Sequence record: SRR20825019_354
DNA length: 64,000 bases
Strand: one strand, 5' to 3'
The position numbers and the translations under genes are program-made. Position 1 is the first letter of the stretch, and each line of letters starts with the position of its first letter. This document shows, in pieces, positions 31,079 to 38,041 of this stretch. The notes under the pieces are model-generated. The model was not told where the DNA came from. It made no database searches and saw only the letters and a list, made by a program, of their open reading frames with translations.

Positions 31079-32617
31079 CTAGCCTAACCAACCTTCACGA
31101 TCAAGACTTCTGTATTGTATGGCTTCTGAAATATGTGTACCTGTAACCTCGTCTGAAGCTTCTAGGTCTGCAATAGTTCTTGCAACTTTAAGAATACGAT
31201 CGTACGCCCTTGCAGATAGGTTTAAACGCTCCATTGCAGATTTTAATAACTGCATCGAGGCTTCATCTAGTTTGCAATACTCTCTAATTTGACGTACTCC
31301 CATTTGCGCATTATAATGTATAGTATCTAGGTCTTTAAAACGCTCAGTTTGCACTTCTCTAGCTTTGGTTACACGTTTTCTTATTTCAACACTACTTTCT
31401 GCTTTTCTGGCATCTGTTAGTTTTTCAAAAGGCACAGGTGTAACTTCAATATGAATGTCTATTCTATCTAATAGTGGTCCGGAAATTTTACTTAAGTAAC
31501 GCTGCATTTCTGCTGGAGAAGAACTTACCGGCGCATCTGGATCATTAAAATAACCGCCAGGACTAGGATTCATACTGGCAACCAACATAAAACTTGATGG
31601 GTAGGTTACTGTAAATTTAGCTCTCGAGATAGTAACCTCCCTATCTTCAAGAGGCTGCCTCATTACTTCTAAAACACTTCGTTTAAATTCTGGTAACTCA
31701 TCTAAAAACAATACACCATTATGAGATAAAGAAATTTCTCCTGGTTGTGGGTACGCACCACCACCTACAAGAGCAACATCACTAATAGTATGATGTGGAC
31801 TTCTAAATGGTCGCTCTGCCATTAAACCAGAATGCTCTCTCATTCTACCAGAAACACTATGAATTTTAGTTGTTTCCAAAGCTTCTTTTAAAGACATTGG
31901 CGGCAAGATAGATGGCAAACGTTTTGATAGCATGGTTTTTCCAGAACCTGGCGGACCTATAAGAATTATATTATGACCACCAGCAGCTGCAATTTCCATA
32001 CAGCGTTTAATTGATTCTTGTCCCTTTACATCGGCAAAATCGAATTCTGGATGATCCAATATTTTGTAAAATTCTTTTCGCGTATCAATAATAGTCTGCT
32101 CAAGTTTAATGTCTCTATCAAAAAAGTCGATTACTTGAGATATGTTATCCACACCATACACTTTTAGGCCATCTACAATAGCAGCTTCTTTTGCGTTTTG
32201 ACTAGGTAATATAAAACCTTCAAAGCCTTCTTCCCTAGCCTTAATAGCTATAGGTAATGCGCCTTTTATAGGTTGTAAAGAGCCATCTAACGAAAGCTCT
32301 CCCATTATAATATACTTTGCTATTTGTTCTGCTTTTATTTGAGACGATGCGATTAAGATTCCTAATGCTAAAGTTAGGTCGTACGCAGATCCTTCCTTTC
32401 GCATATCTGCAGGAGCCATATTTAAGGTGATCTTTTTACCTGGAAGTTTGTAGCCTACATTTTTTAATGCTGCTGCTATACGATAACTACTTTCTTGAAT
32501 TGCTTTATCTGGAAGACCTACTAAATGATAACCAATGCCTTTGTCAACATTTACCTCTACAGTGATAGTTGTAGCCTCTACGCCAAAGACTGCACTACCA
32601 AATACTTTTATGAGCAT
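31079..32617 (-). CDS. comM: YifB/ComM family Mg-chelatase-like AAA+ ATPase
   Basis: [33 protein letters not shown]. Confidence 0.9.
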
Positions 32618-32655
32618 GTGTGCTTGTTTTCTTTAAAAGTAGTGAAAATAAAAAA

Positions 32656-32798
32656 AGAATGCTCCGAGTGGCTATTGTAACGTGTTTATGTTGGTTAATA
32701 CATCACGTATTATATACTCTAAAGTATATAAATCTTTACAGGTTAAGTGCGGTCAACAACTTGAGGCCTGTTAGAATTTGGAGCATTCTATTTTTTCT
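32656..32798. ncRNA. Candidate multi-stem structured RNA or cis-element
   Basis: 14-bp closing stem (32656-32669 with 32776-32789) enclosing three hairpins, with T/A-runs on both sides. Confidence 0.45.
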
Positions 32799-32889
32799 TA
32801 AAATTGGTACTTCAAAATTTAGTTGAAATTTACAGTAGCTATAAATACAGTAAGCTATGTTATTTCATTTAAAATACTTTTAGTTTTCA

Positions 32890-33042
32890 AAGAGGTGAAT
32901 TTTGTTCAAAAGAGTGGAGTTAAATCCTAATTTGGGGCAAAATAAATTTCCTATTTCGAACATTGTTTAACCAATGTGCTTAGTTGGATTTATTCTCCAC
33001 TCTATTTAAACTTCATCTATAAATAGACTCTAACAATTAATC
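32890..33042 (-). ncRNA. Candidate small RNA downstream of the response regulator
   Basis: Long stem (32911-32927 with 32986-33003) and inner ACATTG/CAATGT hairpin; -7-like element at 33048-33055; no meaningful ORF. Confidence 0.4.
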
Positions 33043-33098
33043 TGATGTAAAAATACGAGGATATTGAGTGTTAAGAGTGATTTTACCCTTAACATAGT

Positions 33099-33113
33099 TA
33101 TGGCTGAACCATA
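33099..33113. promoter_or_regulatory. Palindromic operator TATGG-N5-CCATA (copy 2)
   Basis: TATGGCTGAACCATA(C); near-identical to 36202-36217. Confidence 0.6.
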
Positions 33114-33137
33114 CTATTTAATTTTTTAATTAAAATT

Positions 33138-33812
33138 TTAAAGAAAACCCTGTTCTTTAGCTTTTTGGATAAGAGAAACATCGTTTCTTGTGCTAATATC
33201 AAACAGTTTTCGTAAAGATTTCTTTCGCTTTTCTATTGCATTAATAGAAAGTGAAACATATTCTGGTAAGTCTTTTGTTTGAACACCTTTAGAAAGATGA
33301 AATAATATTTTTCTATCCAGCTCATCTATAACATTTCTATTTGTCATGTCATTTCTTATAAACTGCTTAACAGATTTACTATAATATGGAGGATCGTTAT
33401 TTATTGTATCAAAAGCCTTTACCAACTCAGATGAGTTTACATCACTCTTTACTAAGAAGCCGTCTGGGTTCACATTTTTAAGAATACTATGAATACGGTA
33501 ATTATCATTAAACATAGTTAAGAACACAAGCTTAGAAGACGGTGATAACCTGTTTGCTCGTAATCCTAAATCTTCGCCAGATAATATTCTGCCATCTTTA
33601 GATGGAGGCAGCTGTATATCTAAAAATATAATATCGTATGGTGTGCCGGTTGTAGAGTTTTGAATCTTCTCCATACCTTCATCACAATCTTGAGCAGATT
33701 CTATGATAAGTTCATAATCATCTGATGACATATCTTGGAGAGCATTCTTATAGCCCTCGATAATCATAGGATGATCATCTACAATAAGGAGTTTAAGCCG
33801 TTTTTTTGTCAA
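33138..33812 (-). CDS. NarL/LuxR-like response regulator
   Basis: REC domain (IVDDHP, IIFLDIQLP, LTM, GFLVKS) plus C-terminal HTH-like region. Confidence 0.9.
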   Translation of the reverse strand: MTKKRLKLLIVDDHPMIIEGYKNALQDMSSDDYELIIESAQDCDEGMEKIQNSTTGTPYDIIFLDIQLPPSKDGRILSGEDLGLRANRLSPSSKLVFLTMFNDNYRIHSILKNVNPDGFLVKSDVNSSELVKAFDTINNDPPYYSKSVKQFIRNDMTNRNVIDELDRKILFHLSKGVQTKDLPEYVSLSINAIEKRKKSLRKLFDISTRNDVSLIQKAKEQGFL

Positions 33813-35835
33813 AATAATTGGTTTTAGGGACTGTAACCTCTATTAAAGTTCCTTTAGAAAGTTCTGAAGTGATTTTTATTGTTCCCTGCAAATCCTTAAC
33901 TCTTGATGTCATATTTGACAAACCAATTCCTTGTGATTTTTTCTGAACATTAAAACCTACACCATCATCCTCAATAGTAACTTTAATGTGATTTTGATTG
34001 GCATTAAAGGTAAGCAAAACTTCGGTAGCATCTGCATATTTATTTATGTTCTGTATGGCTTCCTGTAGTATTCTGTAAATGTTAATTTTAACCTTACCAT
34101 CTATCATATCCCAATCCAAATCGGTTTGAGTTTGTATAGCATAATTAAAGTTTCCGGCTTTTGATTGTATTTCCAAAAGCTCTTCAATTAAAGAAGTAAA
34201 AACCTGTTCCTCTTTTAACACCTTACTTTGTAGGTTATGAGAAATACTTCGTATCTCCTCTTCTATTTCCTTTAACCTATCTATATAGTTTTGCCTGTTA
34301 TTAATTGCACTTTCATCATGCTTTGTATTTAAACTCCCTAAGCTTAAACGAGTACCAAATAAACTTCCTAAAACACCATCATGGAGTTCTTTAGAAATTC
34401 TCTGTTTTTCACGTTTTCTTCCTTCAGAAATTTTATTTTGCTGATCTATCATTAAATTATAAATCTGCTCATTTGCTAACTGTTGTTCACGTTCTAACTT
34501 AAGTTGATTGTTTTTAGATAATTGACTCTTTATAACGAATAGTAACCCAAAAACCACTAATGCAATTAATAAGCTTATAGTAATATTTCTAACTCGCTCG
34601 CTTAACGCATTGTTCTTATCTATATACTCATCTGTCTCATATCTAATTCTAGCAAATTTATTTTGCATTAAACGTTCTTGAGCTTGCAAACTGTCTGATA
34701 AAACTATGTACCTATTTGCATAAGCTCTAGCATTAAGCGTATCTAATTTAGACAACTTGAGTAAGGATGCTAGTATATCATCTGTATAGTTTGATTCTTC
34801 TGAAAGTTTTTTTGCTTCCTTGGCATAACTTAACGCCTTATCATAATTTCCTTCTCCCAAAAAGTAATCAGATAAATTTAACCTGCTTTCTATCATACCA
34901 GGATCAAACTTTATACTATCTCTTATTTGTTTTGCTTTGTAAAAAAGGTATGGGATCTCTGCATTATTACCGCTCTTAAAGTTAGAGAAGGCAATATTAT
35001 CTAATAGCGCAGAGTAAAGAATCGTATTTTTATAGAATAAGCTATCAACTGTTAAGGCTTGATTAAATGATGTAATTGCATCATCATAACTACCCTTATT
35101 TTTATAAACAACACCAATATTATTAAGAGACACAGCCTTTAAAGTAGGATCACTTTCAAACCTATCTAATGTTTTTAAAGCTTTGCGGTGATAGTATAAG
35201 GCATCTTGATATTCTTCCAACTCATTATTAATGATACCAATATTGTTATAACAGCTATATAAATACTGTTGCTTTCCTAAAGGTTCAAATTTATTTATGG
35301 CTGTAATCGTTGTATTCTCACTACCTATGTAATCCCTTACATTAGTTTGAATGATTGCCATGTTAAGTAACATTTTAGCAGCATTATAATCATTCCCTAA
35401 ATCTTCGAATATAGATTTGGCTTTAAAATAACGTTCGTAAGCTTCTTTGTTTTTGAGTTGTTTATCTCTATAATAAGTTGCAGCATCCCATAATAAAATT
35501 GCTAGCGTTGTGGAATCATTTATTTTTTCAGAAAGCTCAACCCCTTTATTGTTTACATTTAAAAAGTTGGAAGTATCACCTAATTTATAAAACTGATATG
35601 AAATTCTTTTGTAGTAATTATTTTTTAATGAATCTGAATTTATTTGTTCAGCAAATTTAAAAGCTTTTAACAGTATATTGTTTTTCTGTTGGTCAGTTAA
35701 ATCTTGTCTTTTGTATTCATCAATATAAAATTTAAGGCTATCATTTACTGCTAAATTCTTTTCATGAAAATCAAATCCCTCAGAACAAGAGAGTAAAAAG
35801 AATAAAATTAGATATATGTAATATTTATATTTCAT
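33793..35835 (-). CDS. TPR-repeat sensor histidine kinase (HisKA_3/NarX-type)
   Basis: Lipobox-like N-terminus (FFLLSC), TPR-like YNNIG/LNNIG repeats, one TM segment, ISKELHDG H-box, QEAIQNINKYA, DDGVGF, GIGL; ATG at 35835. Confidence 0.9.
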   Translation of the reverse strand: MKYKYYIYLILFFLLSCSEGFDFHEKNLAVNDSLKFYIDEYKRQDLTDQQKNNILLKAFKFAEQINSDSLKNNYYKRISYQFYKLGDTSNFLNVNNKGVELSEKINDSTTLAILLWDAATYYRDKQLKNKEAYERYFKAKSIFEDLGNDYNAAKMLLNMAIIQTNVRDYIGSENTTITAINKFEPLGKQQYLYSCYNNIGIINNELEEYQDALYYHRKALKTLDRFESDPTLKAVSLNNIGVVYKNKGSYDDAITSFNQALTVDSLFYKNTILYSALLDNIAFSNFKSGNNAEIPYLFYKAKQIRDSIKFDPGMIESRLNLSDYFLGEGNYDKALSYAKEAKKLSEESNYTDDILASLLKLSKLDTLNARAYANRYIVLSDSLQAQERLMQNKFARIRYETDEYIDKNNALSERVRNITISLLIALVVFGLLFVIKSQLSKNNQLKLEREQQLANEQIYNLMIDQQNKISEGRKREKQRISKELHDGVLGSLFGTRLSLGSLNTKHDESAINNRQNYIDRLKEIEEEIRSISHNLQSKVLKEEQVFTSLIEELLEIQSKAGNFNYAIQTQTDLDWDMIDGKVKINIYRILQEAIQNINKYADATEVLLTFNANQNHIKVTIEDDGVGFNVQKKSQGIGLSNMTSRVKDLQGTIKITSELSKGTLIEVTVPKTNYFDKKTA

Positions 35836-35863
35836 ACAGAGTTCAAATATATCTAAAACCAAT

Positions 35864-35898
35864 AAAAAAGCCTTTGAAAATTATTCAAAGGCTTTTTT
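35864..35898. terminator. Intrinsic terminator after the small lipopeptide gene
   Basis: AAAAAAGCCTTTGAA-AATTA-TTCAAAGGCTTTTTT. Confidence 0.85.
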
Positions 35899-35920
35899 AT
35901 TTTTTTAAATGTAAAAACTA

Positions 35921-36067
35921 TTATAGTCCTTCATCTTCTCTGTCTGCAGGTACTTGTACCTGATCTCCTACACCGTTGTCAACGTCTTGTGGTAATTCAT
36001 CTGCTTCACAAGCTGCGAATGAGAATGCGAATACTGTAAGAGCGAAAGTGTAAATTAATTTTTTCAT
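35921..36067 (-). CDS. Unannotated 48-aa acidic lipopeptide MKKLIYTFALTVFAFSFAACEADELPQDVDNGVGDQVQVPADREDEGL
   Basis: Manual translation; SPII signal (MKK, hydrophobic core, FAA-C); has its own promoter and terminator. Confidence 0.8.
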   Translation of the reverse strand: MKKLIYTFALTVFAFSFAACEADELPQDVDNGVGDQVQVPADREDEGL

Positions 36068-36150
36068 AATAATGATATTTGTTAGAGTTATATTGTATTA
36101 AATTGTAATCAAATTAACTAAATAAGATTCTTATTTTAAATCTTACACTA

Positions 36151-36180
36151 CAAAAATATATACAAACTGTTACATACCAA
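36151..36180 (-). promoter_or_regulatory. Housekeeping-type promoter of the lipopeptide gene
   Basis: Minus strand TTG-N19-TATTTTTG. Confidence 0.6.
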
Positions 36181-36200
36181 CATTTTAAACCCTATCATAT

Positions 36201-36228
36201 GTATGGTTGAACCATACAATTGGTATGG
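36201..36228. promoter_or_regulatory. Palindromic operator GTATGGTT-G-AACCATAC (copy 1) with an extra half-site
   Basis: Perfect inverted repeat at 36201-36217 followed by AATTG-GTATGG. Confidence 0.65.
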
Positions 36229-36232
36229 CTAT

Positions 36233-38041
36233 TTATTTGCTGGCTATCCAAGCTTCTACTTTTTGAGTTAGAATATCTAACGGTAATGCACCGTCTTTAA
36301 GTATAATATCATGAAACTCTTTAATATCAAAATTGCTTCCTAGCTTTTCCTCAGATAAGTTCCTTAATTCTAATATTTTATTCATTCCAACTTTGTAAGC
36401 GGTTGCTTGGCCAGGCATTACTATATGACGTTCAACCATTTTTATACAGTCGCTTTCTGCATTTGGTGTATTCTTTTTATAATACTCAATACCTTCTTCA
36501 CGTGTCCATTTCTTAGCGTGTATACCCGTATCTACAACTAAACGGCAAGAGCGCCACAATTCCATGGCTAAACGACCAAAATCTGAATAAGGATCTTTAT
36601 AATACCCTACTTCTTTGGGTATATATTCTGAATATAATGCCCAACCTTCTACATAAGCTGTGTAAAAACTATGCTTTCTAAAAGCTGGTATGTTTTCTAG
36701 TTCTTGAGATATTGCAATTTGCATGTGGTGACCAGGTATGCCTTCGTGGTATGCTAAAGCTTCCATTTGGTAGGTAGGCATAGCACTCATATCATAAAGG
36801 TTAACATAATAAGTGCCAGGTCTAGATCCATCTATTGCTGGCTGTTGGTAAAAGGCTTTACCTGCACTTTTTTCTCTAAATGGCTCCACTGCCTTTACTA
36901 CGAGTTCTGCTTTTGGCTTTGTATTAAACAATTTATCTAAGGTACCTTTCATGGTATTGATGATTGCTGTAGCCTTATCTTTATAAGCTTGCTTATCTTC
37001 TACCGTATTTTTATAGTAAAACTTTTCATCTTCACGCATAAATTTAAAGAAGTCCTGCAATGTACCGTTAAAACCTACATCTTGCATAATTTGCTCCATT
37101 TCCTTGTGTATACGAGCAACTTCATTTAATCCAATCTCATGTATTTCATTTGCTGTGAGACTAGTAGTGGTAGTTCTTTTAAGTGCTAAATTATAAAATT
37201 GATCTCCTTTAGGGAATTTCCATACACCATTTTCAACTGTAGCTCTTTGTTGTTGGTCCTGCATTGTAGAAATTAAACCCTCAAAAGCTGGTCTTACTTG
37301 TTCTGTAAGTGCTTTTTCTGCTTTATTTAATAAGTCCTCTTTTTCATCCTTAGGTATTGAAAGTGTATTTACTTTGGTCGTAAAATCTTCCATTAACGCA
37401 CTTACTTCGTTACTCTTTTCAAAAGGTCTTCCTTTAATTAGATTCTTACTATCTCCTATAACTTTCTCAAAAACAAACTTTGGAGGCATTATTCCATTAG
37501 TTTCACGAATGCTCAAATTTTCAGAAACGTCTGCATATACTTTTTCTAAACCTTTTAACCTAGAAATATAAGCCTCTGCATCTTCAACAGAGTTTATACT
37601 ATGCATATTGATAAGGAATGCAGGAATTTCGGCATGCATACCGTGCATTTGATTAACAGGATAATTGTATAATCTAAACGCATAATCTTCAATAGTATGC
37701 TCTAAATCTTGTTTGTATAATGTGTAGCTAAGTGCAGTTTCCTTATTTAAAGCGTTTACATTTAGGCTGTCATTTAAATAAGCCAACCTGTTTTTTGCTC
37801 TCTCAAGTTCTTTTGCTTCTGCTTGGTTAGAAAAATCATCCCATTCTCCATAATTAGTTTTTACTCCTAATTGTGTTTGAAGCATAGGGCTAATTGAAAC
37901 ATCTTCTTTAAATGAGGCTTCAAAAAAATCATTTGCCTTTTTACTTTCTGTTGCTATTGTTTCTTCAGAAATAGGTTCTGAATTTTGTTTGCAAGAGAAA
38001 AGCGCAACGACTAGCGTTGCGCCTATTATATATTTATTCAT
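36233..38041 (-). CDS. DUF885 family lipoprotein (putative metallopeptidase-like)
   Basis: Lipobox LFSC; HEGIPGHHMQ, YVEGWALYSE, RLVVDTGIH, PGQATAYKVG. Confidence 0.9.
   Translation of the reverse strand: MNKYIIGATLVVALFSCKQNSEPISEETIATESKKANDFFEASFKEDVSISPMLQTQLGVKTNYGEWDDFSNQAEAKELERAKNRLAYLNDSLNVNALNKETALSYTLYKQDLEHTIEDYAFRLYNYPVNQMHGMHAEIPAFLINMHSINSVEDAEAYISRLKGLEKVYADVSENLSIRETNGIMPPKFVFEKVIGDSKNLIKGRPFEKSNEVSALMEDFTTKVNTLSIPKDEKEDLLNKAEKALTEQVRPAFEGLISTMQDQQQRATVENGVWKFPKGDQFYNLALKRTTTTSLTANEIHEIGLNEVARIHKEMEQIMQDVGFNGTLQDFFKFMREDEKFYYKNTVEDKQAYKDKATAIINTMKGTLDKLFNTKPKAELVVKAVEPFREKSAGKAFYQQPAIDGSRPGTYYVNLYDMSAMPTYQMEALAYHEGIPGHHMQIAISQELENIPAFRKHSFYTAYVEGWALYSEYIPKEVGYYKDPYSDFGRLAMELWRSCRLVVDTGIHAKKWTREEGIEYYKKNTPNAESDCIKMVERHIVMPGQATAYKVGMNKILELRNLSEEKLGSNFDIKEFHDIILKDGALPLDILTQKVEAWIASK

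Follow-up and report, generated by a model that had tools for sequence, protein, structure and literature searches.

A candidate peptide-sensing two-component cassette with an operator-preceded RNA region in marine Flavobacteriaceae

A 64,000-nt stretch of DNA from sequence record SRR20825019_354, referred to below as the window (all coordinates are those of the whole stretch), carries on its minus strand a compact locus in which a gene for a small secreted peptide is followed by genes for a sensor histidine kinase with tetratricopeptide repeats (TPR) and an overlapping response regulator, and then by a structured non-coding region, the whole reading from 36221 to 32650 (Table 1). An earlier note, made from the letters of the window, had drawn attention to the small open reading frame (ORF), a promoter-like box before it, a terminator behind it, the kinase gene with a -7 element of its own and the overlapping regulator gene; all were found where it had placed them. 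As judged by sequence comparison, the host is a marine member of the Flavobacteriaceae and the cassette is common to many related genera. Genome-wide statements are based on G001, the nearest genome, in which the 3701-nt locus recurs with 100% identity. We regard the locus as a four-part cassette of secreted peptide gene, periplasmic-TPR HisKA_3 kinase, NarL-type regulator and operator-controlled RNA, in which the peptide would set the activity of the kinase and the regulator would act chiefly on the RNA gene. The full chain of this explanation has, in our estimate, an even chance of being right; its links differ in strength and are taken separately below.

Table 1. Features of the locus and its neighbours, in the order of minus-strand reading
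Feature	Position	Strand	Remarks
DUF885 gene	ends 36233		Pfam; adjoins the locus on its upstream side
Operator element A	36184..36221	minus	38-nt element; 15-nt palindrome 36202-36216, then proximal half-site-like stretch; precedes the peptide promoter
Peptide-gene -7-type box	36151..36158	minus	fits TAnnTTTG; TTG 19 nt upstream (36178-36180); sequence reading
Peptide gene	35921..36067	minus	48 aa, ATG start, lipoprotein-type
Intrinsic terminator after the peptide gene	35861..35901	minus	18-pair stem, then T run
-7-type box before the kinase gene	35844..35851	minus	sequence reading
Sensor histidine kinase	33793..35835	minus	680 aa; TPR families, HisKA_3 and HATPase_c (Pfam)
Response regulator	33138..33812	minus	224 aa, NarL/FixJ-type; TTG start; 20-nt overlap with the kinase stop
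Operator element B	33081..33118	minus	directly 3' of the regulator gene; palindrome 33099-33113, then proximal half-site-like stretch
-7-like box of the putative non-coding RNA	33048..33055	minus	ends in A (consensus G); no TTG at -33
Structured non-coding region	32650..33043	minus	~390 nt; strong predicted fold
comM-like (Mg-chelatase-family) gene	starts 32617		Pfam; 33 nt past the end of the structured region

The peptide gene and its two-component partners

A search for the kinase in 61 related genomes gave matches at E <= 1e-20 in 38 of them, including 32 of the 37 genera sampled from the family. Thirty loci were returned. Those with a kinase E of at most 6.3e-86 (27 loci, L010-L036) were taken as orthologous, so that orthologous kinases occur in 27 of the 37 genera; L037-L039 (E 3e-40 to 5e-36) were set aside as paralogue-like, one of them having a small ORF and two having none. 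Every one of the 27 orthologous loci has an ORF of 46-79 aa with a signal peptide immediately 5' of the kinase gene and on the same strand. A scan of metagenome contigs with the regulator yielded 80 further loci, two of them from the window's own species and the next nearest with 57% regulator identity. Setting aside the 32 with less than 2900 nt upstream leaves 48 that can be judged (several are mutual duplicates, so that these are not 48 independent cases), and all 48 carry a signal-peptide ORF, 34 by a first filter, 12 by a relaxed one and two in the form of longer lipoproteins. The earlier proposal implied that the peptide ORF would accompany orthologous kinases, and it does; the neighbouring genes change from locus to locus while the ORF keeps its place. 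Because positional homologues are found in all of these genomic and metagenomic loci, the small ORF is, on the evidence of its position, a real gene. Absent from the ORF track used for the earlier note, it is not uncalled: its exact sequence is already in public protein collections, as are those of the nine orthologues that were looked up (ten with the window's own), six of which bear names such as hypothetical, secreted or uncharacterized protein.

The product has an N-terminal signal peptide with a Cys at residue 20, leaving an acidic mature peptide of ~29 aa. A lipobox Cys is present in 20 of the 27 and 30 of the 48 products (counted by eye), and the others look like substrates of signal peptidase I. 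Pfam has no family for any of the 27 peptides, and NCBIfam models gave sub-threshold matches only, on the signal part. The mature sequences diverge strongly (mean column identity 24%) and fall into classes with C-terminal motifs of their own. Within the window's own species the mature peptide is nearly invariant. Searching 5.8 billion proteins with the single sequence retrieved its own cluster and one relative, 71% identical, which retains the N-terminal acidic stretch and a hydrophobic-Pro core near the C-terminus. At two loci the corresponding products are lipoproteins with 5-6 tandem copies of an acidic Gly/Asp/Pro-rich unit, of which the window's class has one, C-terminal, copy; one locus has three copies of a similar acidic unit, and one has three tandem, nearly identical peptide genes (the multi-unit and tandem-gene loci are L131:243-686, L145:1303-1731, L105:1170-1517 and L147:1402-2065). 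Since the multi-copy precursors repeat just that unit, they mark the C-terminal unit as the probable working part of the peptide. A paralogous kinase in one other genome has a lipopeptide gene of its own upstream.

In one clade (L011, L012, L015, L017, L025, L105, L145), a gene of ~243 aa lies just 5' of the peptide gene. It is taken, on its N-terminal sequence alone, to encode a LytTR-type response regulator; in the window the DUF885 gene holds its position.

In the kinase, Pfam recognizes TPR_12, TPR_1 and other TPR families, HisKA_3 (PF07730; 29.9 bits, cut-off 24) and HATPase_c (PF02518; 46.5 bits, cut-off 26.4). The N-terminus is short and hydrophobic and ends in a lipobox-like Cys, and hydropathy places one internal membrane helix at residues 417-437; since the TPR domain of ~400 aa lies between the two, it is predicted to face the periplasm. 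Orthologues of the kinase occur at 33-40% identity. Consensus TPR proteins and kinesin light chain are similar in sequence to the TPR part, as are, weakly, the peptide receptors NprR (E 1.6e-4) and RapF (E 1.8e-3). The NCBIfam model of FimS (NF053520) aligns to residues 126-446 with 40 bits, far under its cut-off of 600, and membership of the FimS family was rejected on that score. The regulator has a REC domain (43.2 bits in Pfam), and no helix-turn-helix family is listed for it by Pfam at E 0.01; it aligns over its full length to the structures of EvgA, RcsB, NarL, VraR and DesR and matches the NCBIfam MctR and NarL models below their cut-offs. By these domain assignments, kinase and regulator class as a two-component system of the NarL/FixJ type (HisKA_3 with REC-LuxR-type).

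Predicted contact of the peptide with the TPR domain

The earlier note proposed that the peptide is the ligand or a modulator of the TPR sensor, and modelling of the complex supports binding. With kinase residues 17-416 and peptide residues 19-48 as input, the model scored 0.86, as against 0.02 for the best of three controls, in a test that is run independently of our own alignments and is not calibrated for peptides or disordered chains; the mark applied to the score is reached by 51 of 78 solved complexes and by two of 108 mismatched pairs. Agreement in contacts among the three runs is at least 66%, and the pLDDT of the partner is at least 61. In the model, the C-terminal 18 residues of the peptide lie in the TPR groove, residues 31-43 and 45-48 running along successive repeats. 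The predicted contacts include the asparagines N158, N197, N238, N239 and N280. Among 24 kinases, N197 and N239 are each kept in 23, N280 in 21 and N238 in 20, and most other contact columns are variable. Peptide-binding TPR domains are known for just such an arrangement of a conserved ladder that binds the peptide backbone, set among variable pockets. On the strength of the model, we consider binding of the peptide to the TPR domain rather probable.

Covariation of peptide and receptor was another check that the earlier note had in view. Distances between peptides correlate with distances over the TPR contact columns with r 0.51, over the rest of the periplasmic domain with r 0.53 and, less strongly, over the cytoplasmic core with r 0.23. 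With the core accounted for, a partial correlation of 0.48 remains, which was matched in none of 2000 permutations; related sequences are not independent of each other, and all such correlations overstate the case. They suggest that the peptide and the sensor domain co-diversify, and they go that far only.

Palindromes, promoter geometry and the non-coding output

Elements A and B form a direct repeat of 38 nt with 79% identity, each holding the 15-nt palindrome. With up to two mismatches allowed and both strands searched, these two sites give the window four matches to the palindrome, each site matching on both strands; its shuffles have a mean of 0.33, and four were reached in none of 100. 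The two palindromes of the locus are centred at 36209 and 33106, in each case 51 nt before the first base of a -7-type box. The flavobacterial sigma-A box TAnnTTTG is placed at -12 to -5 in PMC9723704, and the palindromes therefore would be centred near -63. A half-site-like stretch near -42 is present in both copies and accounts for the 38-nt similarity. The earlier observation that one palindrome brackets the locus at both ends thus stands, beyond chance and with an equal spacing that it had not specified. Counted from the boxes, transcripts would start at ~36146 for the peptide gene and at ~33043 for the putative RNA. For the -7-type box before the kinase gene, no TTG was seen at the usual upstream spacing.

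In most relatives of the locus, one or two palindromes of the form TAYGG-N5-CCRTA lie directly 3' of the regulator gene. Strictly symmetric sites are found within 250 nt past the regulator stop in 58 of 95 loci (a count that omits the window's locus and two twins, the script having sought an ATG start), at a density of 2.86 per kb there versus 0.038 elsewhere. Among 56 loci with the 10-nt motif described below, the distance from palindrome centre to box is 30 nt in 28 and 52 nt in 22; of the remaining six, two have 46 nt, one 48 and one 24, and two lack a box. The two main operator positions are two helical turns apart, and the window fits the distal one. Matches to an operator matrix peak 700-799 nt from the regulator start, with 129 over 99 loci, and no other bin of 100 nt holds more than 11; as the matrix derives from these very sites, it is only the absence of matches elsewhere that is informative. 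The variable base of the half-site changes symmetrically, being C/G in most loci, T/A in the window and one other lineage and A/T in two others, and the helix-turn-helix of the regulator differs between these three groups. That the one varies with the other is suggestive, the independent lineages being few. Taken together, these patterns make it quite probable that the regulator is the protein acting on the palindromes. As a separate observation, ten metagenome loci have a conserved stretch with the palindrome core ~1.8 kb 3' of the regulator gene, at a fixed distance; it probably lies within a conserved coding gene.

The palindrome is not confined to the locus. G001 has six exact sites of the 13-nt core, where ~0.3 would be expected (simple arithmetic from 33% G+C), and the flanks of all six look AT-rich. 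The four away from the locus (in L003, L004, L005 and L006, each at locus position 1501-1513) have no overlapping ORF of 60 aa or more. One stands at the same distance from a -7-like box and precedes a gene for a 462-aa secreted protein, a second is 2 nt further from its box and precedes a gene for a pyridoxal phosphate-dependent enzyme, and the remaining two precede the RNase R gene and genes for secreted proteins without a Pfam family. (Behind one site, secreted proteins of 200-294 aa have a common N-terminal motif.) Together these four sites may form a small regulon; a regulator gene beside an exact G001 site is seen at the present locus only. A/T-centred palindromes in G001 were looked at as further candidates and rejected: they lie in the loop of a terminator or within an ORF or have no box, and one apparent box is within a coding start.

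Some points count against the operator reading as it applies to the window. Its palindromes score 6-7 bits on the matrix derived from relatives. One clade has no operator that we could find past the regulator gene. In most other lineages, no operator was found upstream of the peptide gene either, a palindrome in that place being confined to this lineage and a few others, so that feedback on the peptide gene is not a general property of the family. The earlier suggestion of shared control over the peptide and RNA promoters is supported in part: the geometry at the two promoters is equal here, but the peptide-side operator is a local feature.

What generally follows the operator is a short RNA gene. 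Past the regulator gene, the order in relatives is palindrome or palindromes, -7 box, an invariant 10-nt motif ~25 nt further on and a terminator, together predicting an RNA of ~105 nt in which the 10-nt motif sits between the halves of a 6-bp stem. This 5' stem is itself invariant and uninformative on covariation, whereas compensatory changes affect seven of the ten pairs of the terminator; the covariation score of 0.403, as against 0.210 in shuffles, was reached by none of 500 and drops to 0.142 or less with the partners slid. Rfam, run on ten related loci, returned two tRNAs and a chance microRNA match only and thus has no family for the ~105-nt RNA. A covariance model built from 32 sequences finds it in 13 of the 27 orthologous genome loci (four of them outside the training set) and in 64 of the 80 metagenome loci (23 in the training set); examples are L020:550-655 (minus), L022:4257-4373 and L084:3820-3934, and L123 and L124 have two tandem copies. 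The earlier notion of an RNA as output of the system gains in generality from this, since a palindrome-preceded small RNA beside the regulator gene is a family-wide theme. Motifs like the invariant loop motif also stand once or twice 5' of peptide genes, in the same sense (L020, L022, L029, L031, L032 and others); this is seen in clades that carry the ~105-nt RNA, and the motifs may be DNA sites or RNA elements.

The window belongs to a class of loci without the ~105-nt RNA, and in some of these the operator precedes a terminated transcript that is longer and different; one clade has neither the ~105-nt RNA nor an operator with a longer transcript. In the window, the 501 nt past the regulator gene fold with a predicted -112.6 kcal/mol, compared with -77.4 (sd 5.3) for shuffles (z -6.63), none of 100 of which folds as well. 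The longest minus-strand ORF in the ~390-nt region has 27 aa. A long-range stem closes its end, with arms at 32780-32795 and 32650-32665, flanked by a run of A and a run of U. Contigs from marine RNA libraries cover the region in four of four runs, and they continue unbroken into the regulator and kinase genes. Three of the runs, each from a different study, have a contig whose first position is 32662, 32668 or 32669 and whose loose end consists of sequencing-adapter letters. This hints at a molecule with a defined end at the last stem, with the proviso that RNA ends cannot be shown by contigs and that libraries of this kind may contain DNA. At the other end of the locus, 35823-35900 is uncovered by contigs in all four runs, kinase-side contigs stop at 35812-35822 in three, and one contig spans 35901-36373, small ORF included; these gaps and ends are not evidence for transcript ends or for terminator function. 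(The hairpin at 35861-35901 matches Rfam as a terminator look-alike only.) In run X1, contig word depth is 270 over the regulator and kinase genes and 42 over the comM-like gene, and such depths cannot rank genes.

Several findings speak against a separate RNA in the window. The continuous contigs are accommodated by a long 3' untranslated region (UTR) as well as by a separate RNA, and the -7-like box is imperfect. Five natural variants seen in RNA-library contigs fall into the folded region, four of them uncompensated in predicted pairs and one unpaired. Against 301 genomes of the family, BLAST with the 501-nt intergenic region returned short AT-rich chance matches only outside G001, and no homologue in 300 other genera; Rfam, applied to 32000-37000 of the window, gave only a terminator look-alike at 30.6 bits versus 55. 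The covariance model of the relatives' RNA likewise finds only terminator-like matches in the window, the best of them (24.1 bits, E 0.023) without the invariant loop; by this comparison, the window's RNA is not a recognizable homologue of the ~105-nt RNA. Overall, we hold the case for a separately started RNA in the window to be evenly balanced.

Interpretation and relation to known systems

The explanation that we favour runs as follows. The small gene would give rise to a secreted, usually lipid-anchored, acidic peptide whose C-terminal 15-20 residues would run in extended-strand form through the concave groove of the periplasmic TPR superhelix, held by the conserved asparagine ladder, and the bound peptide would set the activity of the kinase. 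The phosphorylated NarL-type regulator would then bind as a dimer to TAYGG-N5-CCRTA palindromes whose centre lies at about -63 relative to the start and which are accompanied by a half-site near -42, and would activate the non-coding RNA adjoining its own gene. In this lineage it would also activate the peptide gene, closing a feedback loop, and probably a few other promoters. The direction of the peptide's effect on the kinase and every physiological output are our inference. Most likely, the peptide is a periplasmic or tethered self-ligand that acts on the envelope of its own producer, a freely diffusing pheromone being less likely; the lipid anchor, the periplasmic receptor and the lack of any transport genes seen are the reasons for this preference.

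The alternative that survives best is the one the earlier note had favoured, signalling between cells as quorum or kin sensing, which we think unlikely and nevertheless take seriously. Here the lipopeptide would be exported, released, perhaps after cleavage, and accumulate, re-entering the periplasm of neighbours and activating their kinase, and lineage-specific pairs of peptide and receptor would act as pherotypes. The hypervariability of the mature peptides and their diversification with the sensor domain are what one would look for in such a system, and the multi-copy precursors and tandem peptide genes look like signal factories. The operator 5' of the peptide gene would provide autoinduction in this lineage, but it is missing in most others. 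An acidic motif at +2 to +6 after the lipidated Cys is given as an export signal of Bacteroidota lipoproteins in PMC5080379, and in many peptides of the family acidic residues directly after the lipidated Cys resemble it, pointing to the cell surface; the residues after Cys 20 of the window's peptide are rich in acidic side chains and do not match the published motifs exactly. It is this export-like stretch, together with the multi-copy precursors, that keeps the pheromone reading alive. Against it, no exporter, maturation protease or importer was seen at a fixed place in the loci listed, in what was not a dedicated screen for them. The lipobox of 20 of 27 and 30 of 48 peptides would tether these to the producer, and a 29-aa peptide exceeds the size limit of general porins, so that re-entry would need another route. 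In its widest form, that of a family-wide peptide communication among Flavobacteriaceae by a lipopeptide (in some genera a poly-precursor of 5-6 units) that is sensed outside the cytoplasm and relayed mainly by a dedicated small RNA, the proposal has the same low probability. The same doubtful standing attaches to the corollary that co-diversifying peptide-receptor pairs define pherotypes during algal-bloom successions.

That the peptide is no ligand at all strikes us as improbable. It would then be a small acidic lipoprotein of the envelope that serves some separate function, or the product of a target gene, and the TPR domain would respond to something else, for example a protein of the envelope or a polysaccharide-related cue. 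Both TPR kinases and small lipoproteins are very numerous in Bacteroidota, and the low column identity of the mature sequences is what one might expect of such a bystander. Seven of 44 neighbour pairs drawn blind pass the complex test as well, and the score may partly reflect likeness to solved TPR-peptide complexes such as that of kinesin light chain. Conservation of the contact columns does not exceed that of the remaining domain (p 0.08), and charge complementarity is not specific to the interface, with rho -0.46 for contact and rho -0.49 for non-contact columns; neither of these two tests discriminates. On the other side stand the constant position of the gene despite changing flanks, the upstream lipopeptide gene that the paralogous kinase has for itself, the wide margin between the model and its best control, and the use that the predicted contacts make of the conserved asparagine ladder. 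Quite improbable, finally, is the proposition that the palindrome serves the small regulon of another factor and that the structured region is a 3' UTR of the operon or a leader of the comM-like gene: four more exact G001 sites do precede unrelated genes, RNA contigs do run on continuously from the regulator gene and the -7-like box is imperfect, but in 58 of 95 loci, which come from many genera, the operator lies directly past the regulator gene and at fixed distances to the -7 box, the helix-turn-helix varies with the operator base, and no other regulator gene was seen beside a site.

The architecture described in the earlier note stands and is general, whereas the operator 5' of the peptide gene, on which its positive feedback depended, is not. 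The earlier note knew of no characterised example, and in the literature (main texts, with subscription journals outside the scope) we likewise found nothing that describes a cassette, operator or RNA of this kind. In the sea, Flavobacteriaceae have a major part in degrading algal organic matter, and little is known of how they sense one another or their own envelope; we know of no peptide pheromones in these Gram-negative bacteria. TPR sensor kinases are abundant in Bacteroidota and, to our knowledge, almost none has a known ligand. If the account is true, a linked peptide ligand would be the first handle on this class of kinase, with a defined peptide, groove, operator and RNA output. Should the peptide act between cells, quorum sensing by peptides would have to be extended beyond the Gram-positive bacteria; should it act on its own cell only, the locus would exemplify a new way for a cell to address a kinase by a periplasmic ligand of its own making. 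In either case, the ~105-nt RNA of the relatives is a new candidate for a conserved regulatory RNA.

The receptors of the RRNPP family in Firmicutes (Rap/Phr, NprR/NprX, PlcR/PapR, PrgX) would share with the present system, as the model predicts it, a linked secreted peptide bound in the groove of a TPR superhelix by conserved asparagines, and also co-diversification. They are cytoplasmic, carry a fused DNA-binding or phosphatase module and depend on re-import of the peptide. In contrast, the TPR domain described here is extracytoplasmic and would feed a histidine kinase, and its host is Gram-negative. With Agr and ComCDE/BlpCRH, the common features are a gene for a signal peptide beside those of a kinase and a regulator and possible autoinduction. 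There, sensing is by polytopic membrane proteins, the regulators are of the LytTR type, and processing and export have proteins dedicated to them. The present cassette has a soluble TPR sensor domain, a HisKA_3 kinase with one internal membrane helix, a NarL-type regulator and a signal peptide for general secretion, and no exporter is seen in the locus, whose neighbours are the DUF885 and comM-like genes.

As a self-ligand, the peptide would compare with PorA-PorY, MgrB and NlpE. In MgrB-PhoQ, NlpE-CpxA and RcsF, a very small protein of the envelope, which in some cases the regulator induces, acts on a kinase from the periplasmic side, and modulators of this type provide feedback or report on the envelope and on lipoprotein traffic. 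There is no sequence relation to them, and their partners are without TPR-groove binding or multi-copy precursors. In the PorA-PorXY pathway of Porphyromonas gingivalis (PMC12152298), a small secreted protein binds a sensor kinase in the periplasm on its way out and activates the pathway, PorA acting on PorY by way of its type IX secretion C-terminal domain and the output running through an extracytoplasmic function (ECF) sigma factor. The description of PorY in that text has no TPR domain, and no homology to PorA-PorXY was found here.

On the output side, the likeness is to GacA-RsmY/Z, LuxO-Qrr and AgrA-RNAIII, in that a palindrome-preceded small RNA gene appears to be the chief conserved target of the regulator. 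GacA, moreover, is itself a NarL-type regulator. Unlike the RNA genes of these systems, the one considered here is fixed directly past the regulator gene; the relatives' RNA has no Rfam match, and the window's would be a different and longer molecule. FimS/FimR of Porphyromonas gingivalis, for which we know of no linked peptide, is also a Bacteroidota system whose kinase has periplasmic TPR repeats. The parts of the cassette are thus all of known kinds, and it is their combination that appears new: an extracytoplasmic recognition module of RRNPP-like kind that is joined, in a Gram-negative phylum, to the kinase of a two-component system and comes with a lipopeptide gene beside it and an RNA as output.

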